A DNA stretch of 23,325 bases from a virus (taxonomy: Duplodnaviria; Heunggongvirae; Uroviricota; Caudoviricetes). Both the position numbers and the translations under genes were made by a program. The stretch lies in IMG/VR virus record IMGVR_UViG_2511231170_000001; one strand, given 5' to 3'. Shown piece after piece: positions 3,251-23,325 of the stretch. Under the pieces are notes generated by a model. The model saw only the letters and a list, made by a program, of their open reading frames with translations, searched no databases and had not been told where the DNA came from. Every line of letters begins with the position of its first letter. The stretch's first letter is position 1.

Positions 3251-4393
3251 CTTATGACCTTTGTCAAATATTAAGCCCAAAAAGACCTTACGCAGCTCCG
3301 GGAGCTTCGTTATATCGCGGATTAAAGAACCTGAAACAGTCAGACTGTATCTTGGATTTTACAAACTCTTATTCGGGGATTTTAGCCCCATGACGATTTA
3401 CGCAGTGAGCTGGCCTCTTTCTACGTGCAGGTATTAGCGCATTCTGGCTTCCCTGAATTCTTTTACGAGGATCACTCATTCCGTGTCTGACTGCTTCAGG
3501 GTTTAATTTTGCTTCTGCTGACTGAATGATGATTGGGCAGCAAGTGCAATATCCCACATAAATCCAGTCAACTCACGAGCCACCGCCGTAATGGCTACTT
3601 GTGATTTTTTCCCTTTTGCTGTCAGACTTCGGTAACGAGAACACAATCGTTGTTGAGCTTTCCATGCAATATCTTTGGAATATTGTGTTACAGAGTCCGG
3701 TCGGTAATATATAAGCCATGCCCCAACTTTTGCAGGTGTACGATAAGACCAGGCGGCTTCGTAAAGCAGACGTCTCAGTTCGCTGTTTCCAACTTTTGTT
3801 ATTCCTCTGGGACGAATACTGTTTCCACTGGAATATTCACCTGGCACCAGTCCCAGAAAAGCCATGAGCTGTTTGGGATTGGAAAATCGCGAAAAATCAC
3901 CCAGTTCAGCAACCAGAGTTATTGCAATTAGCTGACCAACACCTTTAAGAGCCTGCAACTGGCAGACCAGATTGCACAGAGACCACTCAGGTAACAGGCG
4001 AGATATTTCCTGGTCGAGTTGAAGTATGCGATCTTCAATCTGCTCCAGACTTTGACAATAGTGTTGAAAAGCAATCTGTTGAGATGGCTGACTAAATGAT
4101 TGATTAGCTAACCAGGTTCGATGTTTTCCTGTCCAGTGCTTTCCTGCATAATGTTTGTCTGTTCGCAATAGCATGCTCAGAATTCGCTGTCGGGCAACTC
4201 TGCTGTCTCGTTTAGCTGCTGCACGGGCTCTGATTAGATCCCGCATAGCTTCATGAGTCAGGTCAGGGATCCAGACAGGGGTAAGTTCTCCAGCCCGCAG
4301 TAACCTGGCGAGAGAAATTGCGTCCCGATGATCATTTTTGATTCTGTCTGTCGGTGATTTTGGTATGCGGGAAGGGGCAATAACCTGGCATTT
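3251..4393 (-). mobile_element. IS110/IS1111-family element, 3' portion (C-terminal part of transposase plus 250-bp 3' noncoding end)
   Basis: DEDD-type IS110-family transposase similarity; subterminal TATGACC at 3252-3258 is the inverted partner of GGTCATA at 15534-15540; the two parts sum to about 1.45 kb, a typical IS110-family size. Confidence 0.65.
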
Positions 4394-4441
4394 TATATTC
4401 ATCGCTGTGATTTTATAAATTAGTGTTTTTTGCTGTTTCAT
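3503..4441 (-). pseudogene. IS110-family transposase, C-terminal about 300 aa; the ATG at 4441 and first ~16 codons lie on the island side of the junction
   Basis: ...IKCQVIAPSRIPKSPTDRIKNDHRDAISLARLLRAGEL matches the IS110-family consensus; the N-terminal 77 aa of the same protein are at 15237-15485. Confidence 0.8.
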
Positions 4442-4537
4442 AATGTGCCACGTTGTTCATTATGTTTTTGATTTTTAAGCTCATTGCAATTTTTCTTGTT
4501 CCAACTTGTTCCACGTTGTACCCCCTTGTGCAATGAT

Positions 4538-4563
4538 CGGTGTAGTTAATGGTGTAGTTAATT
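4538..4563 (+). repeat. Left terminal 26-bp direct repeat CGGTGTAGTTAATGGTGTAGTTAATT (two tandem GGTGTAGTTAAT units); candidate integrase arm-type site or att core
   Basis: Perfect 26/26 match to 15154-15179; preceded by 10-bp-phased CTTGTTCCA repeats at 4495-4513. Confidence 0.85.
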
Positions 4564-4584
4564 GTGATGACCGGATTCAAAATT

Positions 4585-5814
4585 ATGAGCAGAGCACTTA
4601 ACAAACTGAGCGATACACAGCTAAGAAAAATCAACGGCACACCAGCCCCAAAAACCACATTTCTTAATGACGGTGGAAACCTGAGCGTCAGGCATTCCAC
4701 CAGCGGCTTATTAACCTGGTATTTCACCTACAGAGCAGGAGCTGGACGCCAGGTATCACCGGAACGCCTGAAGCTGGGAAATTATCCTGATCTGAGCCTG
4801 AAAGCAGCCAGGGAAAAAGCGGCACAGTGTCGCGCATGGCTGGCAGAAGGAAAAAATCCACGCCATGAGCTTAATTACTCCATACAGGAAGCACTAAAGC
4901 CGGTAACGGTGGGTGATGCGATCAGCTACTGGCTGGAAATGCACGTAAAGGAAAACCGTGTCGATTACGTATGCCTGAAAAGCCGCCTGAATAATCACGT
5001 CATACAGCATATTGGCAATATGCCACTGGATAAATGCGAGTTACGTCACTGGCTGGCCTGTTTTGACCGGATACGCAAAAAATCCCCTGTAACGTCTGGT
5101 CACATGATGCAGGCGTGTAAACAGGCGCTTAAGTTCTGCCGTAAACGTCGCTACGCAGTCAGTAACGTTCTGGATGATCTTAACGTGGTGGACGTTGGCA
5201 AAAAACCAGGCATAAGCGAACGCGTGCTGAGCAACAAAGAACTTGGCGAATTATTACAGGCGCTGGATAAAAAAATATTCCCGCCCTACTACAGCGCACT
5301 AATCCGCCTCCTGATTGTGTTCGGCTGCCGAACCGGAGAACTGAGATTATCGGAGATCAGGGAGTGGGATTTTAAGGAAATGCTCTGGACAGTACCGAAA
5401 GAGCACAGCAAAACGAAGGTCGCCATATTCAGGCCAATACCGGAAAGCATTTTACCGTTCGTCACGCAGCTGGTGGAGCAGAACAGACACACAGGGCTAT
5501 TACTCGGGGAACTGAAACAGGAAGCCAGTGTGTCGCAATACGGCAGATTCATGCACAAAAAATTAAACCATCCGCACTGGTCACTACACGATATACGGCG
5601 CACGTTTACCACGATGCTGAACGATTTAGGCGTGGATCCGCATATTGTCGAACAACTCACCGCTCACCAGATGCCAGGGATGCAGCGAGTCTATAACCAC
5701 TCCCGTTATCTCGATGCGAAACGTAATGCGCTGGACATGTGGACAGAGCGGTTAGAGATACTGGCGGGTACTCACAAAAACGTAACCACACTGCCAATAG
5801 CCAGAGAAATATAA
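4585..5814 (+). CDS. int: Tyrosine site-specific integrase (P4-type, N-terminal arm-binding domain)
   Basis: N-terminus LSDTQLRK...DGGNLSV...WYFTYR and C-terminal HDIRRTF...Y catalytic region; start uncertain (GTG 4564, ATG 4567 or ATG 4585). Confidence 0.9.
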   Translation: MSRALNKLSDTQLRKINGTPAPKTTFLNDGGNLSVRHSTSGLLTWYFTYRAGAGRQVSPERLKLGNYPDLSLKAAREKAAQCRAWLAEGKNPRHELNYSIQEALKPVTVGDAISYWLEMHVKENRVDYVCLKSRLNNHVIQHIGNMPLDKCELRHWLACFDRIRKKSPVTSGHMMQACKQALKFCRKRRYAVSNVLDDLNVVDVGKKPGISERVLSNKELGELLQALDKKIFPPYYSALIRLLIVFGCRTGELRLSEIREWDFKEMLWTVPKEHSKTKVAIFRPIPESILPFVTQLVEQNRHTGLLLGELKQEASVSQYGRFMHKKLNHPHWSLHDIRRTFTTMLNDLGVDPHIVEQLTAHQMPGMQRVYNHSRYLDAKRNALDMWTERLEILAGTHKNVTTLPIAREI

Positions 5815-6181
5815 TTTTTTTTGCGATTTTTTAGAACTGACACAACGTGAAACAACGAGACACCACGACGAACAACGGCGAACAATCTGGAACAAACTTG
5901 ATTAACATCTGACTGACACCCTAAAAAGTTGATTTTCAGTCGTTTTACTGGCTTTTTGTACATTGGCGAATCACTCTTAAAAACATGTAAAAAAGGCGTA
6001 AAAACAGAATTTTATGCCTTTGCACCACAATGAATTAAAAGAGTTTTTATTCTCATTACCACACTTCTGTAAAATGACCGCCGCCAGTGTTTGCCATTCC
6101 ATAAACACCCTGACACAATCCGACGCACCACAACACAATAGGACACCAAATAACTCTTTAAGAAATATCAAAGGGGGAATT

Positions 6182-6370
6182 GTGTTAAGCACAGATCGCT
6201 TTATACGTGAAAAAGAATGTCAGCAACTTACAGGCCTGAGCCGTTCATGTCGGTACCGCCTGGAAAAAACCGGACAATTCCCATCACGGCGTAAGCTCGG
6301 CGGTCGTTCCGTTGGCTGGTCTTTATCCGAAGTTCTGGCATGGAAGGAAAGCTGCGAGGCAGTTCACTAA
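6182..6370 (+). CDS. alpA: AlpA-family transcriptional regulator / excisionase-like protein
   Basis: GTG start after AAGGGGGAA Shine-Dalgarno; ...GLSRSCRYRLEKTGQFPSRRKLGGRSVGWSLSEVLAWKE resembles AlpA. Confidence 0.8.
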   Translation: MLSTDRFIREKECQQLTGLSRSCRYRLEKTGQFPSRRKLGGRSVGWSLSEVLAWKESCEAVH

Positions 6371-6898
6371 TCAGGCTGGCGGCACACAGCCGCCACCCAT
6401 CCACTAATACAGAGATCTAACCATGAATACTGGATATTCTCCCGAACAAGGGCGGGGCTTCGTTCGTCCTGAAAAACAGAATCTGCAAAATTTTGCCGAA
6501 ATTATTCCGGTTATTTCCGGCCTTACTGGCGGGAGTGAAACCAATATTGTTAACGCCAGAGCGTTGCAGATGTTTGATGATAAAAAGGGAGTAAATTTAA
6601 CTTACACCCCTGACGGCAATCAGAATATGAGCATTATCTCTGAGTCAGGTTTCTACAAACTAATAAAAACAAAAAGCGCCCCGTTGCCGGAGCGCCTTTG
6701 TGAACAATTAACCTACTGCGCAAAAAATGAATCTGAGCAGTGGGATTATATCAACCGTGTGGCGAAGCGCCACAATTGCCGGATAACAGGCAAAACAAAG
6801 GCCACCCGCTACGGTGGCCCCTCGACACAAGCTACACGTTATCCCCAACGCATGAGCATCACCAACAATGCCACATTTGCGGCTGGTGGGCAATGTGA

Positions 6899-7087
6899 TC
6901 AGTCAGATTTGGTTCGTTCCAAGGTTTGCAACGAGAGCTTTTTCCTGTGCTCTTTAAGGAATTTCTCAAGAGCAAAAGCACATGGCGCGAATCTTTCTGA
7001 TTCATGCTCTATCTTTCTGCGCCGTCTTTTCCGTGCCGGTGATAATGTTTTGGTCAATTCTTTATCGGTCATTGTGTTGTCCTGCAT
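6899..7087 (-). CDS. Small basic hypothetical protein, second gene of the leftward operon
   Basis: 62-aa ORF downstream of the RHH-like gene; hairpin plus T-run terminator on the minus strand near 6790-6820. Confidence 0.3.
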   Translation of the reverse strand: MQDNTMTDKELTKTLSPARKRRRRKIEHESERFAPCAFALEKFLKEHRKKLSLQTLERTKSD

Positions 7088-7129
7088 AGCAATGCGCCGT
7101 AATACCTTACACCACGGCGCTGATGGTGA

Positions 7130-7435
7130 TTACTCTGGTTCTTTGGTCTTGCGACGCTGGAGTTCTTCGCGTGCAACGGTGACAAGCTGCCCGATTTCTT
7201 CCGCTGCTTTGATGCCGATTTGTTCGACCTTAGCCAGGGCATCCAGTGACGACACAAGGGGATTTTCTCCGCTGCCTTCTGCTTGGCGGCGGGCTATTTC
7301 TCCGCGCATGGCGGTTACGATAAATCCGGCATTGCTTTCGCCGTCCAGCTTAACGGATTCCATCCCTTGCATAACATCTAGTGGGACTCTGACAGTTGTC
7401 AGTTGTGATTTTGCGTTTTTGTTAGCCGTTGCCAT
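7130..7435 (-). CDS. Putative ribbon-helix-helix DNA-binding protein; candidate island repressor
   Basis: AGGAG Shine-Dalgarno 7 nt before ATG; N-terminal beta-strand then two helices (TTVRVPLDVMQGMESVKLDGESNAGFIVTAMRGEIARR); divergent from the rightward operon. Confidence 0.55.
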   Translation of the reverse strand: MATANKNAKSQLTTVRVPLDVMQGMESVKLDGESNAGFIVTAMRGEIARRQAEGSGENPLVSSLDALAKVEQIGIKAAEEIGQLVTVAREELQRRKTKEPE

Positions 7436-7496
7436 TTCTGAAACTCCTAATCATCGGTGTGTTTCAGTATACACAAAAAAAGAAATACAAAAAGCC

Positions 7497-7534
7497 TTGA
7501 CGTGTGTTTCATGCGCTCATAACATGAAACACAC
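7497..7534 (+). promoter_or_regulatory. Rightward promoter (-35 TTGACG 7497-7502, 17-bp spacer, -10 TAACAT 7520-7525) overlapped by a perfect 12-bp inverted repeat GTGTGTTTCATG-N9-CATGAAACACAC
   Basis: Read directly; a further half-site GTGTGTTTCA at 7457-7466. Confidence 0.5.
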
Positions 7535-7632
7535 CAAAAGAATTGTTGAAATACAAAGAGCAACGCCCCGCAGTGCCGGAAACACATACGGGGCGTCTAA
7601 CCACCAACGATAGCAAGATTATCGAGGCTGCT

Positions 7633-7839
7633 ATGAGAAATCATACCATACACCCGCAAGGGCGGGACTCGCACAACCTGAATAAATACATCTGGCGTTT
7701 TATCGCCCTGAGTACGGCACAACCGCGCGTGATTACCATTGAGGCCACCAGCGAACAGGAAGCCCGTCAGCAATCACCGGCTGGCTGCGTGATGGTATTC
7801 GCCGCCCGTATTCGTCAGGGGGTGCACCATGTGCAATAA
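7633..7839 (+). CDS. Small protein resembling Icd-like (host cell division inhibitor-like) proteins of P4-like islands
   Basis: GAGG Shine-Dalgarno; motif WRFIA...IEATSEQEARQ...FAARI recalled from Icd-like annotations; uncertain. Confidence 0.45.
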   Translation: MRNHTIHPQGRDSHNLNKYIWRFIALSTAQPRVITIEATSEQEARQQSPAGCVMVFAARIRQGVHHVQ

Positions 7840-8065
7840 CACCCGTCCGGACGCAGCCGCCGAAGCAATCAAAACACTGATTGATGCGCTGATTGATATT
7901 TCTGTTATCGCGGACAGGGCGCATAAGCACGCTACCAGTGAAACAGAATATGCCGGGGCTTTCGTTCCTCATTCACTGGCTGTAATGCAACTTAGTGCTG
8001 ATATGGCACTGAATGAGGCCAGCAAAATTATCATGGCTGATATGGAGGTGGTGAGCCATGAATAA
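7829..8065 (+). CDS. Hypothetical protein
   Basis: 78-aa ORF, start overlaps the preceding gene's end. Confidence 0.4.
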   Translation: MCNNTRPDAAAEAIKTLIDALIDISVIADRAHKHATSETEYAGAFVPHSLAVMQLSADMALNEASKIIMADMEVVSHE

Positions 8066-8270
8066 TAATGAAGCGCACTTATCTGTAGTGCTGAATGTGC
8101 CGTCAGATTATACGGGGCGCGTACTGGTGTATCTGGAAAAAGGCCGGGTTAAATGCCAGTGCCGTTTAATGGAAAACGAATTTATCAGCACTCTTGCGGG
8201 ATTTTCTGAAATGCTCACTAAATCGGGTGTTAGTGCAGACCAGTTACGCGGGGGCGATTATGCGAAATAA
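8058..8270 (+). CDS. Hypothetical protein
   Basis: 70-aa ORF overlapping its neighbours by a few nucleotides. Confidence 0.4.
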   Translation: MNNNEAHLSVVLNVPSDYTGRVLVYLEKGRVKCQCRLMENEFISTLAGFSEMLTKSGVSADQLRGGDYAK

Positions 8271-8478
8271 ACATGATATTGAAGACCTGGCATTTGAAGC
8301 CCTGCACTCTGCGAAAAAAATCAGGGAAGTCGTCAATATGTGGATGAACAGCCTTAGCACCGATGAATCCGATAGCAGAGAGGAAATTCTTATTTCTTTG
8401 TTGTTAGACCTGGCAAATACACAGGTTTCTCTGACATCTGATATTGAACTCGCCGCTAAAAATCTGCCTCTGGAGTAA
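8260..8478 (+). CDS. Hypothetical protein
   Basis: ATG at 8260 overlaps the upstream stop (ATGCGAAATAA); acidic 72-aa product. Confidence 0.4.
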   Translation: MRNKHDIEDLAFEALHSAKKIREVVNMWMNSLSTDESDSREEILISLLLDLANTQVSLTSDIELAAKNLPLE

Positions 8479-8484
8479 AAAAAC

Positions 8485-8784
8485 ATGAAACAGAAAAATT
8501 CTGGCTTTACTGCCAGTGGTCTCCCTCGGCCTGAAATCCGCCCCGGCGATATTTTCCGGGATAACTACGGTGGCACGGTAACGATTAAAAGCGTGGCGGG
8601 GCGGTGCGTTACTTACCGCCGTGATGGGTACGGCTATGACTGCGTGATGCCTGCTTATCAGTTCCGGCGTGATTTTTCACTGATACAGGCCACACCACGC
8701 AAACAGCCCACCAGCAACGCAAAGGCACGGGCAAATATTCAGAAAATGAAAAACATGATTAACGCATTCAGGGGCAAAAAATGA
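8485..8784 (+). CDS. Hypothetical protein
   Basis: 99-aa ORF directly upstream of, and overlapping by 4 nt, the replication gene. Confidence 0.45.
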   Translation: MKQKNSGFTASGLPRPEIRPGDIFRDNYGGTVTIKSVAGRCVTYRRDGYGYDCVMPAYQFRRDFSLIQATPRKQPTSNAKARANIQKMKNMINAFRGKK

Positions 8785-17162: not shown

Positions 17163-17441
17163 TCATTCGTCTGATGTGACAGTGAGTACAGCCAGGCGTT
17201 GTCCTTTTCCGTGATATGTGCGGTACTGCAACGAACGTATGTCGGTAAGGGCAGTAAACGGTGGTGGAGAGTCGGTTGTCTGCTGTTCGGGAGCATCCAC
17301 CACGCGGAGTGAATAACCGTTTTCAGCGACCTTATTATTCAACTCAGCGGGGTCAATACCATCGACGTCAACGACAATTCGCCCCATGTTCAGTGCCTGC
17401 ACGTTAACGCTGTCTGCTTCGAGCGTCAGAGTCAGTTTCAT
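17163..17441 (-). CDS. YeeW-like small protein, translationally coupled downstream of the toxin
   Basis: ATG 17441-17439 overlaps the toxin stop (ATGA); same position as yeeW in CP4-type islands. Confidence 0.55.
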
Positions 17442-17815
17442 CGTTTCGCCTCCGAATGTTCACCCCGGATGATGTCGTTCACCATTCTGTAGTTGCTGCG
17501 GGTCATCAGGCCGGTTGCCCGGCGGGCCCGGAGGATATCAATACTGTTTATTAACTGAGAACGGGTACAAGCGCTGAATCCTGGCTGGTCGGTACGTACC
17601 AGTGCGTATTTTTCAACGAGAAAGTTCACCGCATCGCACAGTGAAATGCCTGCCTCAATATGCTGCTCAATCACACGTTCATCAGCGAACGGTGTGTCAT
17701 TCAGTGTGAGGCCGTAATGCTGGTCCAACAGTTGGGTGAGCAGTGTCTGCCAGATGGTGACGGGAGACGGGCAGCGCGATGCCTCCCGTACGTGTGTGTC
17801 AGGTAATGTTTTCAT
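17438..17815 (-). CDS. CbtA/YkfI/YpjF-family toxin (type IV toxin-antitoxin, cytoskeleton-targeting)
   Basis: [76 protein letters not shown]... closely resembles CbtA-family toxins; start is the internal ATG at 17815. Confidence 0.85.
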
Positions 17816-17861
17816 CTTAAGTTCTCTGTAACTGGTAGTGCTAAAGGTGAGATATTCGGGG

Positions 17862-18236
17862 TTATGAGGTGGTTGCGGGTGCCAGTGTCGGATAAACAGC
17901 CATATAAACGTAACCACAGCTGCCGAGGGTGTCGGCTTCGCAGGTCAGCCCTCTGGCATACAGCGTGACGGTATGCTGATGGCGGGGATTCAGTTCACCG
18001 ATGGTGAGCATGAGTTCCAGTTGTTTCATCAGCAGTGGAAAAGCCTGGTCCAGATGGTATGCATCCGCGTCGCTGAACTGCCCTCTGATACCGGCGCGGT
18101 CGGCAAGGTAATGCAACTGATTGCCCTCCTGCACCAGACGTGCCCCGAAACAGGGCGTCACGGTGCAGGGTAGCCCCCACCAGGGGCGGTCGTTGTTGTC
18201 GTCGGGATAATTTGTTTCATGGAGCGTGTCTGACAC
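17862..18236 (-). CDS. CbeA/YeeU/YfjZ-family antitoxin
   Basis: ...[64 protein letters not shown]...; GTG start at 18236 (VSDTL) inferred by alignment. Confidence 0.85.
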
Positions 18237-18285
18237 GATAAAGTCCTCACAGAAAATCGGTGAATGATAGTTTAACGATGACGGG

Positions 18286-18930
18286 TCAGCCGGTGCACAG
18301 ACCGGCTTCGGTGAAGGTGTATTCGTTGATGAGCAGGGCCTCATCCACAGCGGCGTCTGAGGTCAGCCAGTCGTACTCGTTTTCCAGTTGACGGTACAAC
18401 CAGAAGGCCAGGTCGCGCAGGGCTTCGCTGACAGCGGCTTCCGCATCGGCTGTCAGTGCCTGACCAGTCGGACTGTTCCGGGTGACGGTGATATCCATGC
18501 TGTACGGATGGCAGTAACGTCCCCGGTGACTGATTTCAGCCTGTAACTGCCAGAAGTTACGCTTCTGTACCGCCTGCAGGGCATCCGCGATACGATGAAG
18601 CTCACGGTCCTGAGGGGCATATTCCCTGATTTTCCGGGGTGTCGCTGGCTGCCAGTGCCAGCGCCCTTCAAAACAGGCTCCGTCCCCCTGGCTGCAGAAT
18701 CCGCTGAACCAGATGCACGGCTCTTCCATAAACCTGCCGTTGCTGAGCCGGAAAACGCGCTGGCGGAGGTCAATTCCGAAAATGCCACAGACCTCCCTGA
18801 AGTCCTCATACACGTTTTCATACCAGTTGCTGTCAGCATGATGCTGACGGTACCAGTCGCGGGCTTTTTCCTGTGCGGTGGAGGATAGCTCATGCAGTGT
18901 ATACACGGTGGTGGTGATAATTCTGCTCAT
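18286..18930 (-). CDS. Hypothetical protein (214 aa) between the DUF987 gene and the antitoxin
   Basis: Gene-like ORF tightly packed in the operon; no family recognised. Confidence 0.55.
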   Translation of the reverse strand: MSRIITTTVYTLHELSSTAQEKARDWYRQHHADSNWYENVYEDFREVCGIFGIDLRQRVFRLSNGRFMEEPCIWFSGFCSQGDGACFEGRWHWQPATPRKIREYAPQDRELHRIADALQAVQKRNFWQLQAEISHRGRYCHPYSMDITVTRNSPTGQALTADAEAAVSEALRDLAFWLYRQLENEYDWLTSDAAVDEALLINEYTFTEAGLCTG

Positions 18931-18948
18931 CAGAATGCCCTTACTGAC

Positions 18949-19170
18949 TCAGTTCAGAGTGACGCTCATCAGCCGGACATACGGGCCAAAACTGTCCTTA
19001 CGGCGTTCAGCAAACACGGCCAGCACACCGGGAATATCCTGCACTTCACGACCGGTATACGTTTCAGTGCTGCCGTGCCAGCGGTATTTGCCGGTACAGA
19101 ACGGAAAAAGACGGGATGCAGGATGCTGTTGGTGAATACGCATGGCTTCACCACGGGTGATGATTTTCAT
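18949..19170 (-). CDS. DUF987 / YeeT-YkfF family protein
   Basis: MKIITRGEAMRIHQQHP.SRLFPFCTGKYRWHGS...YTGREVQDIPGVLAVFAERRKDSFGPYVRLMSVTLN is near-identical to recalled YeeT. Confidence 0.85.
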   Translation of the reverse strand: MKIITRGEAMRIHQQHPASRLFPFCTGKYRWHGSTETYTGREVQDIPGVLAVFAERRKDSFGPYVRLMSVTLN

Positions 19171-19232
19171 AATGGGATACCTCTGAAGACAGAAGATAAA
19201 AGTGAAAACAGGTGTGATGTGGTTGTGACGGG

Positions 19233-19709
19233 TTAAAGCAGACCATGTTCGGCAAAGGAGAAAACCTGGCTGCCACCGACTATCAGATGGTCCGGCACCC
19301 GGATATCCACCAGGCCCAGTGCCTGTACCAGACGTTCCGTGATAAGCCGGTCTGCCTTGCTGGGTGTGACTTCACCGGACGGGTGATTATGTGCCAGCAC
19401 CACGGCTGCGGCATTGTGATACAGGGCGCGTTTAATCACTTCCCGGGGATGGACTTCCGTGCGGTTGATGGTGCCGGTGAAGAGGGTTTCACCGGCAATC
19501 AGCTGATTCTGGTTATTCAGATACAGCACCCGGAACTCTTCACGCTCCAGTCCCGCCATGTTCAGAATCAGCCATTCCCGTGCCGCACGGGTGGAGGTGA
19601 AGGCCACGCCGGGTTCATGAAGATGGCGGTCCAGGGTTTTCAGGGCCCGCAGAATGAGACTGCGCTCGCCGGGCGTCATTTCTCCGGGCAGAAAGGAAAT
19701 CTGTTGCAT
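19233..19709 (-). CDS. RadC-like JAB-domain protein (YeeS/YkfG/YfjY family)
   Basis: JAMM motif ...VVLAHNHPSGEVTPSKADRLIT... Confidence 0.85.
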   Translation of the reverse strand: MQQISFLPGEMTPGERSLILRALKTLDRHLHEPGVAFTSTRAAREWLILNMAGLEREEFRVLYLNNQNQLIAGETLFTGTINRTEVHPREVIKRALYHNAAAVVLAHNHPSGEVTPSKADRLITERLVQALGLVDIRVPDHLIVGGSQVFSFAEHGLL

Positions 19710-19724
19710 TGTTCCTGCCCCCTT

Positions 19725-20198
19725 TCAGTCAATAATGCGCATAATGGCGCTGCATTCCGGATGCTGCAGGGCGTAATCCCGCAGACGGTAATAATGAACC
19801 GTCATGGCATAACACTCCGTACGGCAGGCGTGATGACTGTACGTCATCAGACAGGCGGCAATGCCGGCGGCTTCCGGGCTCATTTCAGCGCGGTTACCGT
19901 TCATGACGTTAAACAGCACCCATGTTTCGTCATCATCGTCATCCGGTTCGGGTGCCATAAATGCGCCACCGTTGTTCAGGGTGTACAGATTCCAGATACC
20001 ACCGCAGTAGTCTTCATACAGACGGTCCATCCAGCCGAAGACCCGGGGCTCCAGGGTCACCCACTGTGGAATGAGGCCAAAATGCTGCGGCCAGAAGCTG
20101 ATGCGCTGTTCATCAGGGACTATGGTGGCAACCAGTTGTTGCAGGCCAGTCTCCGGTGCACAGGCCGAAGAGGTGGTGTTCTGAGACAATGTTTTCAT
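19725..20198 (-). CDS. Antirestriction protein, KlcA/ArdB-like (YfjX/YafX family)
   Basis: Start at ATG 20198 after AAGGA; MKTLSQNTTSSACAPE... and an acidic DDDDDE patch. Confidence 0.8.
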   Translation of the reverse strand: MKTLSQNTTSSACAPETGLQQLVATIVPDEQRISFWPQHFGLIPQWVTLEPRVFGWMDRLYEDYCGGIWNLYTLNNGGAFMAPEPDDDDDETWVLFNVMNGNRAEMSPEAAGIAACLMTYSHHACRTECYAMTVHYYRLRDYALQHPECSAIMRIID

Positions 20199-20291
20199 GT
20201 ATGAAATCCTTGTAATGTGAATAAATGAGAGGGAGTAAAGGTCGGGAGCTGGCAACATCACGTTCATCACTGACCGTGAGACCCGGTAATA

Positions 20292-20537
20292 TCAGGGATG
20301 AATGATATTCGGCTGAAATTCCGGACAGCCGTACGCGTAACCGTTCCGGTCACAGACGGATGGCCAGATGCCATTGCCTGTACTCAGTCTGCACAGACTG
20401 ATTTCTCCGGGACGGTAAAGCAGACGGGTACACCAGGCGCACAGGTCATCATCAGAAATGGAACGACACCCCGGCAGCGCCTCCGGGGCGTCGGGTGATT
20501 CTGGTGCCTGAATCACGCCTTCAGGGACATGCTGCAT
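20292..20537 (-). CDS. Hypothetical small Cys-rich protein, translationally coupled to the DUF932 gene
   Basis: ATG at 20537 overlaps the DUF932 stop (ATGA). Confidence 0.4.
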   Translation of the reverse strand: MQHVPEGVIQAPESPDAPEALPGCRSISDDDLCAWCTRLLYRPGEISLCRLSTGNGIWPSVCDRNGYAYGCPEFQPNIIHP

Positions 20538-21358
20538 CAGCGCTGGCTCTCCAGCAGCGTTTCTGCCATTACCCACAATGCGCGGTTGAGCTTAATATCG
20601 GTGTCGATGCTGTGAATGGCACGGGTGTGGATACGTTTTCCTTTTGCACTGCGACCGGAAATCCCGCCTTTCAGCATATTCTCCTGGATGGTCTGATAAG
20701 TACTCCACAGGTCCTTACCGTAATCCTCCCGGCGTCGTGGCGTCAGAATGTCGGCGGTGGTGACGGGCCGATGTTCGTCACCATAACGGTAAGTCAGTGC
20801 CGCCTGTGCCAGCGCCTGGCGTGCCGGTGGCGGCAGAATCAGCGACTGCATGGCATCACGCATCTCCTCTATCCGGTCAAACACGCCCACCACCTCGTAA
20901 GCCCCTTCAATGACTCTGTCCACCACATTTCCCCGGTGCGGAACACGCACTTCCCCCAGAGACTGACCACAGACGCATCCGTTCTGGCAGACGAACCTGA
21001 AGTAACCCGGCAGCATCTGGTAGCTGGAGGTACCGTCATGAGAGTTGAGCAGAATAATTTCAGGGACATGTTCTCCGTTTATCTCTCCGTTACGGCGCAG
21101 GCGCAGCATGTGTTTTGTGTATCCCCGGCGGCCCGGGTCGCGCACACAGGTCTGGCAGGCGAAGAATGGCTGAAAGCCTTCCCGCTGCAGGCTTTCCAGT
21201 ACGGTGATGGTGGGGATGTACGTATAGTTCTGGCTTCGGGACGTGTGTTTCTCTTCCCCGAAAATCCCCGGCACATGGTGCATCAGCTCTTCATGTGTCA
21301 GTGGACGGTCACGGCGTATCTGGTTCGCAGCATAACCAAAACAACTGGCTAATCGCAT
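20537..21358 (-). CDS. DUF932-domain protein (YfjQ-like)
   Basis: 273 aa; MRLAS.FG...IRR.RPLT..ELM..VP..F...KH.SRS..YTYIPTI...L...GFQPFFACQ pattern recalled from YfjQ. Confidence 0.8.
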   Translation of the reverse strand: MRLASCFGYAANQIRRDRPLTHEELMHHVPGIFGEEKHTSRSQNYTYIPTITVLESLQREGFQPFFACQTCVRDPGRRGYTKHMLRLRRNGEINGEHVPEIILLNSHDGTSSYQMLPGYFRFVCQNGCVCGQSLGEVRVPHRGNVVDRVIEGAYEVVGVFDRIEEMRDAMQSLILPPPARQALAQAALTYRYGDEHRPVTTADILTPRRREDYGKDLWSTYQTIQENMLKGGISGRSAKGKRIHTRAIHSIDTDIKLNRALWVMAETLLESQR

Positions 21359-21394
21359 ACTTTGCTCCTTATCGGTGGTTAAGATTTACTGGTG

Positions 21395-21425
21395 TAATAA
21401 ATGAAAAAGCCACGTCTCCCGGAGA
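21395..21425 (-). terminator. Possible rho-independent terminator on the minus strand
   Basis: Reverse complement reads GCGTCTTCTCCGGGAGACG followed by TTTTTCATTT. Confidence 0.3.
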
Positions 21426-21457
21426 AGACGCAGCCTGATGGGTGAAATGAATGACGT

Positions 21458-21691
21458 TTATTGTCTTAGAGGACCGTCACTGGCGAGCCGCGTATTAAGC
21501 ACCTTTCCGGCATCGGGTTCAGAATTCCGGCAGCGCCAGCGTCGCTGACCTTCCGCGTTGCGGATAACCCAACGGAAATGCATTCCCGGGTCATCCTGGA
21601 TAAACACATTGCGGTAAGCTGTTATGACAGCAACCTCCTGTTCGCGTAAGAAAGGGGCTTCGGAAAATAAGAGTAATGTACAGCCCCTCAT
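21458..21691 (-). CDS. Hypothetical protein, possibly a gene remnant
   Basis: ORF only. Confidence 0.3.
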
Positions 21692-21808
21692 GTGTTTTCA
21701 CCTGAAAATAAAAAGCCCCAGCCATAATGGCAGGAGCGAATTTACTATTGATTTTAATAATGCGCAGATAAGACGCATAATTCCTTTAATAGTTTTGTTC
21801 GTTATGGA

Positions 21809-22261
21809 TTATTCGAGTGGATAGTCGCGATAGTGCCAGTATTTACCATCAACATAAAAGGTCACCTTACCGCGACGTTTACCCTCCCTATAAAACGTAT
21901 CGAAATTCCAGGTAACATTCTTGCCAGTTGAATAGCTGCCACCAACGACAACATCACCAACCATTATTGCATGAACAACCACGCCATAAGCGTTAAGTCT
22001 GCCTTTACCATTGGGGGAATTGAAAGGGATTCGGACAACGCTTGCTGCACCCCAGGGGTCAGTTTGTTCAACAAAGCAGAGACCTTTAAAGCGTAAACGT
22101 GCATTACATGGGAACTGGTTACGGTTTTGCGCGAACTCCACATATTCCGGGAACGGTGCACGACCTTTCTCAGGACGCTTTACTAATGCGGCGTCGCTAT
22201 CAGGTACGATAGTCATGAACAGGAAAGCAACAAAGAACGTTAAAATGTGTCGGTGTTTCAT
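21809..22261 (-). CDS. Putative secreted protein with N-terminal signal peptide
   Basis: Start at ATG 22261 after AAGGA; MKHRHILTFFVAFLFMTIVPDSDA signal-like N-terminus; AT-rich gene. Confidence 0.6.
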   Translation of the reverse strand: MKHRHILTFFVAFLFMTIVPDSDAALVKRPEKGRAPFPEYVEFAQNRNQFPCNARLRFKGLCFVEQTDPWGAASVVRIPFNSPNGKGRLNAYGVVVHAIMVGDVVVGGSYSTGKNVTWNFDTFYREGKRRGKVTFYVDGKYWHYRDYPLE

Positions 22262-22416
22262 GATAAAAATCCTTCTTAAATTATTCGATACCACGGCTTA
22301 CGGAATACGACCGATTAATTCGGCGTTATGGCAGAAATCCATGGTCGTATAATTATCCGCGGCCAGTAGATGAATGCTGGCAGACATGACTTCTGGCGGT
22401 TCGCAAGCGATGTCCA

Positions 22417-22665
22417 TTAAACGTGGACAGGCTTTGGCTTTTTATCGCTAATAACTAGCCCAGTGCAGGTATCCCCCTGCATCAGTTTATACACTTCGTG
22501 TTTACTGAAGCTATATATTAACACCGGTGACTCGTCCGGGTTAATAATTACAGATTCTTCAGTTGGTTCGCAGTGACGGATATCCGAACCACCGAGTGCA
22601 TAAGTGTCGGTGATGCCAATTTCACAGAAAAGAATGATAGTATAAAGTATAGTTTTGATTTTCAT
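22417..22665 (-). CDS. Putative small secreted protein
   Basis: MKIKTILYTIILFCEIGITDTYA signal-like N-terminus; start at ATG 22665. Confidence 0.5.
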   Translation of the reverse strand: MKIKTILYTIILFCEIGITDTYALGGSDIRHCEPTEESVIINPDESPVLIYSFSKHEVYKLMQGDTCTGLVISDKKPKPVHV

Positions 22666-22695
22666 TTCACTCACAGTTGCGAAAAGGTTGAATAC

Positions 22696-23325
22696 TTACA
22701 GCTCCATTCTGGCAAGATATTGTTTGAAATCTTCTTGCGCTTTCATTAGATCACGACGTTCGGACTTATTCATTCTGCTGAGGATCGCATCATTCACACA
22801 TTGCGCAGGCAGGCGGAGTAAGACATGAGTCTTATGTTTTTGTCTGATCTCTTTTACTTTACGATCCGATTCACCAACACCATGAGTATCGAGCACCCCG
22901 GTTCGAAAGAACTCGTCAAGTTCGTTACTTTGCGCAAGGTATTGAGTATCGACAAAGACGTAGTGACACGAGTTTTTGTTCTCAGCCCAATACCCGATCT
23001 GAATATCAGACCATAAGGCGTCCTTGTTGTTTAGCAAGTAGAAAGTCCTGGTTTCGTTGTCAGCGACGAAAATTATGCTGCTGTTTTTACTACGGTAAAT
23101 CGTGTATCTGTTACCCGGATAATTCGCAATTTCTTCGGCCTTATAGAGGAGACTGTTTAAATATTCTTTTTTATACCCGGTTTCGTTTTTCCAGCCTGCT
23201 TTTTCTTTGTAAAACCATACTCCCTGCGGAAAACCGGTGATATCCTCTTCAAACTGACCCAGCGATTCGGCAGTCGCGGTGATGGAAATGAGTAAACCGA
23301 TAACCAGAATTAAAAAATGTTTCAT
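22696..23325 (-). CDS. Putative secreted protein (209 aa); start codon at the window edge
   Basis: MKHFLILVIGLLISITATA signal peptide; AT-rich. Confidence 0.6.
   Translation of the reverse strand: MKHFLILVIGLLISITATAESLGQFEEDITGFPQGVWFYKEKAGWKNETGYKKEYLNSLLYKAEEIANYPGNRYTIYRSKNSSIIFVADNETRTFYLLNNKDALWSDIQIGYWAENKNSCHYVFVDTQYLAQSNELDEFFRTGVLDTHGVGESDRKVKEIRQKHKTHVLLRLPAQCVNDAILSRMNKSERRDLMKAQEDFKQYLARMEL

Follow-up and report, generated by a model that had tools for sequence, protein, structure and literature searches.

A signal-peptide gene cassette in a CP4-type island of Escherichia coli and its apparent origin in jumbo-phage gene arrays

Where does a run of signal-peptide genes in a bacterial genomic island come from, and what might the encoded proteins do there? 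These questions are raised by one end of a stretch of 23 325 nucleotides held as IMG/VR virus record IMGVR_UViG_2511231170_000001, the whole of which is referred to here as the window. The DNA is a CP4-type genomic island of E. coli lying next to the gene for tRNA-Asp (aspV), of the type found in strains CFT073 and Nissle 1917. An initial annotation, made from the letters alone, described three consecutive minus-strand genes for proteins of 150, 82 and 209 amino acids, each with a signal peptide; these are designated P1, P2 and P3. The open reading frames (ORFs) lie exactly where they were placed, and the outer two are intact: P1 at 21809–22261 (minus strand, 150 amino acids) and P3 at 22696–23325 (minus strand, 209 amino acids). 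The middle one is a frameshifted pseudogene. The explanation that we favour, with a probability of about one half, is that the cluster was captured as a piece of a jumbo-phage array of exported-protein genes and now occupies a variable slot of the island, and that P1 and P3 act at the cell envelope in conflicts involving phages.

All three proteins have been in databases since the early 2000s as hypothetical proteins. Their UniProt entries (Q8VR96 for P1, Q8VR95 for P2 and Q8VR94 for P3) are uncharacterized, and no paper on the genes was found in the literature searched. Both P1 and P3 are in the ORF list of the window; P1 is also a coding sequence of the Prokaryotic Genome Annotation Pipeline (PGAP), in which P1 is WP_000682723.1, P3 is WP_000680181.1, both hypothetical proteins, and P2 is uncalled.

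Origin and anatomy of the cassette

The DNA around these genes had been regarded as markedly AT-richer than its surroundings and as a separately acquired cassette, and composition, boundaries, relatives and distribution agree with both statements. The guanine plus cytosine (GC) content is 43.3% in the cassette region, 50.1% in the window overall and 54.5% in the island module alongside it (17428–21808). The region is the lowest-GC 1.5 kb in the window; 0.7% of segments of 1517 bp are equally low, and each of them overlaps it. At third codon positions, the GC fraction is 0.42–0.47 in the P1–P3 region and approximately 0.64 in the DUF932, antirestriction and RadC genes. Homology to the backbone of the common island variant breaks at position 21510, inside the 3′ end of the DUF905 gene, and resumes approximately 45 bp upstream of a fourth signal-peptide gene, P4, which lies just past the end of the window and encodes a member of the YfjT family (PF27224). 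The cassette thus extends beyond the window by one gene.

The relatives of these genes point towards jumbo phages. When 1.84 billion cluster representatives were scanned in full with HMMER, a single true distant homologue of P1 was identified, the protein P0015, which is equal in length and 57% identical. (Another candidate, the 289-amino-acid P0019, looks like low-complexity sequence and was disregarded.) P0015 is encoded on five assembly contigs, L010 to L014, with a GC content of 43.7%, within a run of five consecutive signal-peptide genes. The array begins with two YfjT-family genes for proteins of 151 and 156 amino acids, the second 75% identical to P4 of CFT073; it continues with an intact 128-amino-acid homologue of P2 (63% identity) and the P1 homologue, and ends with a gene for a protein of 129 amino acids. 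Genes for a baseplate protein, an SbcC-like protein and an SLT endolysin are found on contigs of the L010 type, and L010 to L014 match the Erwinia phages Asesino and phiEaH2, together with Salmonella and Escherichia phages of the genus Seoulvirus (SPN3US type). Judged by these matches, the contigs are jumbo-phage genomes. In Escherichia phage vB_EcoM_EC001, an equivalent array of four signal-peptide genes is found in the same place.

The similarity extends to the DNA. Positions 21807–22674 of the window, covering P1 and P2, align with contig L010 at 65.6% identity over 878 bp (E value 3e-50), and P4 with its following spacer aligns at 76.3% over 532 bp. Directly after the stop codon of P1 lies a stub of the fifth array gene (21755–21790, minus strand), consisting of a ribosome-binding site (RBS) followed by eight codons (MRLICALL) from the start of a gene of the 129-amino-acid family, phrog_5248. 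The stub, ATGCGTCTTATCTGCGC, is identical to the start of the 129-amino-acid gene in a phage-like element of Enterobacter ludwigii, and the similarity is gone after approximately 24 nucleotides. Because similarity to this gene ends after the stub, which marks the downstream end of phage-derived DNA, the phage-like DNA is taken to run from the start codon of P4, past the window end, to approximately 21755. The resulting order of genes, P4, P3, P2, P1 and the stub of the fifth gene, is collinear with the phage array except for P3, and the base composition is also phage-like.

The middle gene is no longer intact. P2 matches phrog_9424, a phage family of 128 amino acids, with an E value of 2.7e-15, and the match covers positions 1–79 of the 128 in the profile, short of the full length. 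Its 82-amino-acid ORF (22417–22665, minus strand) comprises the signal peptide and residues 24–78. When intact 128-amino-acid homologues were used as queries in tblastn, residues 82–121 were recovered in another frame, −3, at 22423–22304, and DNA alignment identified two single-nucleotide deletions relative to the intact phage genes. Because the match stops at position 79 and the remainder is out of frame, P2 is a pseudogene of the phrog_9424 family, spanning 22281–22665. The apparently intergenic stretch of 155 bp between P2 and P1 (22262–22416) is its decayed 3′ end.

P3 has a different relationship to the array. Relative to contig L010, it is an insertion exactly at the start codon of P2, and its junction is duplicated: GTGAGTGAAATGAA lies at 22661–22674, and the motif GTG(A/C)(G/A)TGAAATGAA flanks P3 on both sides. 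A 180-amino-acid protein that is 27% identical to P3 is encoded in the same slot of other islands, upstream of P2-like remnants; because of this arrangement, the adjacency of P3 and P2 is taken to be old, and the donor of P3 may simply be unsampled.

The spacer that follows P4, including its hairpin and RBS, is conserved with the phage contig. At L001 13927–13981 and L010 7540–7595 it consists of a conserved GC-rich hairpin, GGGGGACTTCCTGGCCCCC, followed by AAGGAGTGC(A/G)TGAAATGAA, and a portion of this RBS-and-start motif is seen again ahead of P2. From this recurrence, the array genes may share a modular junction that helps insertion or swapping of genes.

As an element, the cluster is a phage-derived accessory cassette in a genomic island, and the most similar known systems are the arrays of SPN3US-like (Seoulvirus) and Asesino-like phages. 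These share the order P4, P2, P1 and 129-amino-acid gene, with PHROGs 9424, 3429, 8968 and 5248; identities of 57–75% between proteins and 66–76% between DNAs; and the same spacers, RBSs and GC content. Unlike the phage arrays, the island copy is chromosomal, is a fragment with a frameshifted P2 and a truncated last gene, and contains P3, and the P1 family lies outside PHROGs and deposited phage genomes. Overall, the origin and anatomy of the cassette are well supported by these comparisons.

Comparison of island and phage copies also gives a measure of past selection. The proportions of synonymous and nonsynonymous differences (pS/pN) are 0.77/0.29 in P1, 0.70/0.12 in P4 and 0.63/0.24 in the N-terminal segment of P2, and pN is likewise far below pS for two other array families. 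As estimated from these alignments, P1 is shown to have evolved under purifying selection, and because pS is far above pN, the sequences of P1, P4 and the N-terminal segment of P2 code, or once coded, for genuine proteins. The agreement in GC content between cassette and contigs suggests that the phage was the donor and the island the recipient.

The E. ludwigii element mentioned above (L015, NZ_CP134650.1) is a record of 222 kb, labelled as a non-mobilizable plasmid, in which almost all of the genes are hypothetical. Over 12 kb, a stretch that takes in the SbcC-like and SLT genes, its identity to the jumbo-phage contigs is 77%. Judging from this similarity, the record is probably no plasmid but the genome of a jumbo phage, either wrongly labelled or present in a carrier state.

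The island that carries the cassette has the CP4-type backbone of DUF932, antirestriction, RadC/JAB, DUF987, YeeU/CbtA, DUF5983, DUF957 and DUF4942 genes; insertion at a tRNA gene or at the CP4-44 site also forms part of the definition used. This backbone is evident in the annotation of the counterpart of the window and of CFT073, where it adjoins tRNA-Asp, and it recurs at the CP4-44 site of strain Santai; the DUF932 and DUF905 genes are also matched by Pfam. The closest complete genome is that of strain GABEEC132, with 99.9% identity over the whole window. The cassette itself is rare, present in approximately 200 of 5426 complete E. coli genomes, and all of its copies are at least 99.8% identical. 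It occupies at least two chromosomal sites: aspV in CFT073 and the CP4-44 site in the O157:H16 strain Santai. Its hosts include CFT073, Nissle 1917, ABU 83972, avian pathogenic strains and other extraintestinal lineages, along with commensal isolates from ducks, pigs, mice and wild animals.

The cluster had also been thought to appear where CP4-type islands usually have a GTPase gene. The comparison behind this is sound, in that the GTPase gene yfjP lies directly upstream of the DUF932 gene yfjQ in CP4-57 of strain K-12, but here the GTPase has not been replaced. It is still found approximately 5–6 kb upstream, intact in Santai and as a frameshifted fragment with a GKSGAGKSS motif in CFT073. 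The order in Santai is GTPase, dynamin, RdcB, patatin, P4, P3, P2 (as the pseudogene), P1, DUF905 and DUF932. The cassette is therefore an addition between the patatin gene and DUF905/DUF932, not a replacement of the GTPase gene.

Beyond the window end, between the YeeP/YfjP-type GTPase and the cassette, lies an operon for a dynamin-family protein, an RdcB-family protein and a patatin-like phospholipase (L001 14578–18944; L019 18169–23624). It is found in 2590 of the 5426 complete genomes (48%), and its dynamin gene is frameshifted in CFT073. With PADLOC, the upstream patatin, dynamin and GTPase gave weak matches only, with E values of 1e-5 to 2e-4, those of the operon being to LeoBC and a phospholipase effector.

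Export signals, relatives and structure models

The claim that each of the three genes begins with a clear signal peptide was examined by a rule-based heuristic for export by the Sec pathway and cleavage by signal peptidase I. This looks for a positive n-region, an h-region of approximately 10–15 residues in which the best 10-residue Kyte–Doolittle average is at least 2.0, and small residues at −3 and −1 within approximately 35 residues of the start. P1, P2 and P3 all pass, with the n/h/c layout and sites of A-x-A type, and four flanking cytoplasmic proteins (DUF905, DUF932, antirestriction and RadC) fail. With h-scores of 3.53 for P3, 2.86 for P1 from its true start and 2.37 for P2, they are the top three among the window sequences that pass. 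Writing the predicted cleavage as a slash, the signal peptides are MKHRHILTFFVAFLFMTIVPDSDA/ALV for P1 (residues 1–24), MKIKTILYTIILFCEIGITDTYA/LGG for P2 and MKHFLILVIGLLISITATA/ESL for P3 (residues 1–19), and the layout and A-x-A site are retained in diverged homologues. The lipobox of signal peptidase II, [LVI][ASTVI][GAS]C, is absent from all three sequences as read, the ILFC of P2 departing from this pattern. A strong RBS, AAGAAGGA, lies 5′ of the ATG of P1.

The mature part of P1 has 126 residues, is beta-rich and has two cysteines, both invariant in its homologue. P3 is beta-rich in its N-terminal half and helical at the C-terminus; of the two cysteines in its mature part, one is invariant in the 180-amino-acid homologue. 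From the A-x-A sites without a lipobox, there is a strong case that P1 and P3 are exported via Sec and cleaved by signal peptidase I. Both look soluble, and they would fold in the periplasm with one disulfide each, which fits the two cysteines per mature protein and their conservation in homologues.

Few relatives of these proteins are known. A k-mer (word-indexed) search of 5.8 billion proteins matched P1 and P3 to near-identical E. coli copies only, and the P3 family has eight clusters among the 5.8 billion, in which all named members are from E. coli. Searches of Pfam and NCBIfam gave nothing significant for P1, P2 or P3, and P1, P3 and P4 match no defence family in PADLOC-DB 2.0 at E values up to 0.001. 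Scans of IMG/VR for the P1 and P3 families recovered no relatives, and tblastn of P1, P3 and the 180-amino-acid relative of P3 against 50 697 phage genomes gave no match. Searches of sequences in the Protein Data Bank (PDB), with single sequences and with profiles, produced matches at chance level only; one for P1 to aspartate decarboxylase (E value 0.37) was not reproduced with a profile and was rejected. AlphaFold models are of low confidence, with a predicted local distance difference test score of 63 for P1, all-beta after a short helix, and 51 for P3; fold searches with these models gave generic matches only.

The possibility that the array genes are paralogues was also considered. Among the array families tested, only the 136- and 129-amino-acid families are related (probability 91%); P1, P2, P3, YfjT and X, a protein described below, are mutually unrelated. 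Alignments of the P1, P2 and P3 families with the YfjT family by hhalign reached a probability of at most 1.1%, leaving P4, outside the window, as the only YfjT-family member of the cassette, with 35% identity to YfjT of K-12 (E value 1e-30). The YfjT and YfjS/YafY proteins of the K-12 elements CP4-57 and CP4-6 are similar to the cassette proteins in being small exported proteins of the same kind of island, encoded near DUF932. They differ in that the exported-protein genes of CP4-57 are downstream of DUF932 while here they are upstream, and in that P1 to P3 have no similarity to YfjT.

Possible roles of a variable exported-protein slot

The site between the patatin gene and DUF905/DUF932 is a slot with at least five variants among islands, and every protein encoded in it has a signal peptide by the rule-based test. 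One variant is the cassette of the window. The common variant, in 2375 of the 5426 genomes, has a 136-amino-acid signal-peptide protein, which belongs to phrog_8968 and is 90% identical to the copy in the E. ludwigii element, and a 227-amino-acid ORF. Others encode the 180-amino-acid P3-like protein with a 160-amino-acid protein, X, or fragments of both, and in one variant the slot is nearly empty. Phage arrays vary likewise between conserved flanks.

X occupies the position of P1 in islands (L003, L002 and L005) and in the E. ludwigii array (L015 12710–13192), where its gene is not annotated in the record. Its signal peptide is 44% identical to that of P1 over the first 32 residues (MKRLHTLM...A/A), and the mature parts are unrelated. 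The 227-amino-acid ORF of the common variant (L005 4184–4867; L007 4188–4865) is an in-frame fusion of a P3-like signal peptide and approximately 45 further residues to a complete X precursor. The X part of this fusion keeps its own internal signal peptide, and the true product may start at the internal methionine. PGAP flags the stand-alone X genes in L002 and L003 as missing the N-terminus, which possibly stems from comparison with the longer fusion form.

X resembles Ivy (PF08816), an inhibitor of C-type lysozymes and lytic transglycosylases. The Pfam model matches four of five X members below threshold, with a score of 16.8 bits against a cut-off of 21. Alignment with E. coli Ivy by hhalign (E value 4e-4, probability 35%) runs across the disulfide-bonded inhibitory loop, pairing CKAHACG with CKPHDCG, and X carries a CKAxxCGW loop. 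This similarity weakly hints at a relationship and is best treated as a lead. Ivy is periplasmic, is made with a Sec signal peptide and has approximately 130–140 mature residues, and P1 is similar to it in predicted location, signal peptide and size; unlike X, P1 has no CKPHDC-type loop, its mature part is similar neither to X nor to Ivy, and P1, P2 and P3 have no Ivy match at E values up to 1.

These observations can be combined into a model. A fragment of an SPN3US- or Asesino-like exported-protein array would have been captured by a CP4-type island, between the dynamin–RdcB–patatin operon and DUF905/DUF932. P1 and P3 would be soluble periplasmic accessory ('moron') proteins acting at the envelope in phage–phage or phage–host conflict. 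Possible actions are the exclusion of superinfecting phages, or the binding and inhibition of cell-wall hydrolases or of the entry machinery, and the island would retain the proteins because the host is protected. Several phages encode envelope proteins for superinfection exclusion, such as Sp and Imm of phage T4, Sim of phage P1, Llp of T5 and Cor of phi80. These are small, envelope-targeted accessory proteins that differ from one related phage to another and benefit a host that keeps them. They differ from the P1 and P3 proteins in being mostly membrane-anchored or lipoproteins, with no similarity to P1 or P3 in sequence or fold. The proposed conflict at the envelope draws on the phage origin, the predicted periplasmic export, the variability of the locus in both phages and islands, and the swap of mature domains with an Ivy-like occupant; on this basis it is a tentative assignment, on the doubtful side. 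P1 and P3 are not expected to be metabolic or structural cell proteins.

A broader and more speculative form of this model, which is rather unlikely as a whole, is that jumbo phages and CP4-type islands have a hypervariable periplasmic locus in common. Unrelated mature domains would be exchanged behind a conserved signal peptide and RBS, as for P1 and X, and P1 and P3 would found new families of periplasmic anti-phage proteins, active in superinfection exclusion, or of cell-wall hydrolase inhibitors that E. coli islands took over from phages for their own protection.

Several observations weigh against the capture-and-conflict model. P1 and P3 lack matches in Pfam, NCBIfam, PADLOC, PDB sequences and PHROG. 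P1 matches no deposited phage genome, only phage-like assembly contigs, and P3 has no phage relative in either collection searched and is absent from the sampled phage arrays. The similarity to Ivy belongs to X rather than P1, is below threshold, and was not accompanied by recovery of an Ivy structure when the X profile was searched against PDB sequences. The direction of transfer rests on GC content, and the near-identity of the E. coli copies means that selection within E. coli is not measurable. Finally, the pseudogene P2, the stub of the fifth gene and the frameshifted dynamin gene upstream in CFT073 are signs of decay.

Such signs give rise to the main rival explanation, in which the cassette is a leftover in decay, carried along passively by the island and functionless in E. 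coli, its ORFs surviving only through recent acquisition. P2 has been frameshifted twice and the fifth gene cut to eight codons; relatives of P3 are often frameshifted fragments or, in the common variant, fused to the next gene; the slot is almost empty in one variant; the damage to dynamin in CFT073 fits; and the near-identity of the copies points to recent spread. However, intact copies of P1, P3 and P4 are found in approximately 200 genomes, whose strains come from diverse hosts, and at no fewer than two places in the chromosome, P1 keeps its strong RBS, and signal-peptide proteins fill the slot in most islands, the common variant above all. On balance, simple decay is unlikely, although it deserves more weight than the functional alternatives that remain. 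One of these is that the proteins are orphan immunity proteins against toxins acting in the periplasm, such as type VI secretion system (T6SS) amidases and lipases, or colicin-like and lysozyme-like effectors. Variable arrays of small periplasmic proteins on mobile elements are typical of immunity genes, and a weakly Ivy-like protein takes the equivalent position in other variants. This is nonetheless improbable, since no T6SS, effector, toxin, VgrG, PAAR or colicin gene is annotated in or near the island at the loci examined, no known immunity family in Pfam or NCBIfam is matched, and the homologues occur in jumbo phages, for which immunity between bacteria is of no evident use.

The location of the cassette in the aspV pathogenicity island of uropathogenic strains raises the idea of virulence or colonization factors, secreted or in the envelope, with the animal host as their target. 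Carriage by CFT073, ABU 83972, Nissle 1917 and the avian pathogenic and other extraintestinal lineages is in keeping with this, but the same cassette is found in the animal commensals, Enterobacter, Erwinia and Salmonella phages carry its relatives, no dedicated secretion system lies nearby, and no papers mentioning these proteins in such a role, or any other, were found; we regard such a function as distinctly improbable. Least probable of all is a partnership in which the proteins are periplasmic partners or sensors of the dynamin–RdcB–patatin operon, forming one joint system. The genes are directly downstream of the patatin gene, in the same orientation and with short spacers, and the cassette co-occurs with one patatin allele (patatin at least 99% identical in 205 genomes, against approximately 200 with the cassette). 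Yet the operon is 92–96% identical between islands in which the content of the slot is swapped or nearly absent, no gene for a dynamin or a patatin lies close to the phage arrays, and the break in homology falls between the patatin gene and P4.

Several points give these findings wider significance. The two intact proteins, Q8VR96 and Q8VR94, have been in the genomes of uropathogenic and probiotic strains, such as CFT073 and Nissle 1917, without annotation for more than 20 years and now have an origin and a hypothesis of function. The connection with jumbo-phage arrays, the recognition of P2 as a pseudogene, the limits of the insert and the variable exported-protein slot are new. The comparisons document gene flow between jumbo phages and chromosomal islands, which is not commonly reported. 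Versions of the slot, with proteins that are always of the exported kind, are present in nearly half of E. coli genomes. Variable loci with products aimed at the envelope, such as this one, are promising sources of new enzyme inhibitors or factors for phage exclusion. Should the proteins prove to block entry of phages, this would have a bearing on phage therapy against extraintestinal pathogenic E. coli and on the phage resistance of Nissle 1917.

Neighbouring features of the window

The next gene downstream of the cassette encodes a DUF905 protein of 77 amino acids (21458–21691, minus strand; Pfam DUF905, E value 4.8e-17). It is followed on its 3′ side by a terminator-like hairpin at 21407–21436 (minus strand), a 13-bp stem and then a run of T, identified by its match to the consensus. 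This hairpin could end a transcription unit containing the cassette, and its position between DUF905 and DUF932 suggests that the cassette and DUF905 form a unit separate from DUF932. A promoter scan found sites no more numerous than in shuffled sequence, and Rfam and tRNA scans of the window found no RNA genes. The DUF932 gene lies at 20537–21358 (minus strand), and further downstream on the same strand are the antirestriction, RadC/JAB, DUF987 and YeeU/CbtA genes. An ORF for 81 amino acids (20292–20537, minus strand) overlaps the DUF932 stop codon; it is a 'hypothetical protein' in most genomes, and its counterpart in strain 2018-06-4CC, under a different accession, is annotated as an 'antirestriction protein'.

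Elsewhere in the window, a 10.8-kb element at 4410–15256, absent from CFT073, is inserted in the transposase gene of ISEc45 (IS110 family), the two halves of which lie at 3503–4417 and 15255–15485. The element encodes an integrase, AlpA, an Icd-like protein, a RepA helicase, a single-stranded DNA-binding protein, a major capsid protein, a head decoration protein and a small terminase, a gene set that we take to be that of a capsid-forming phage satellite of the capsid-forming phage-inducible chromosomal island (cf-PICI) type.

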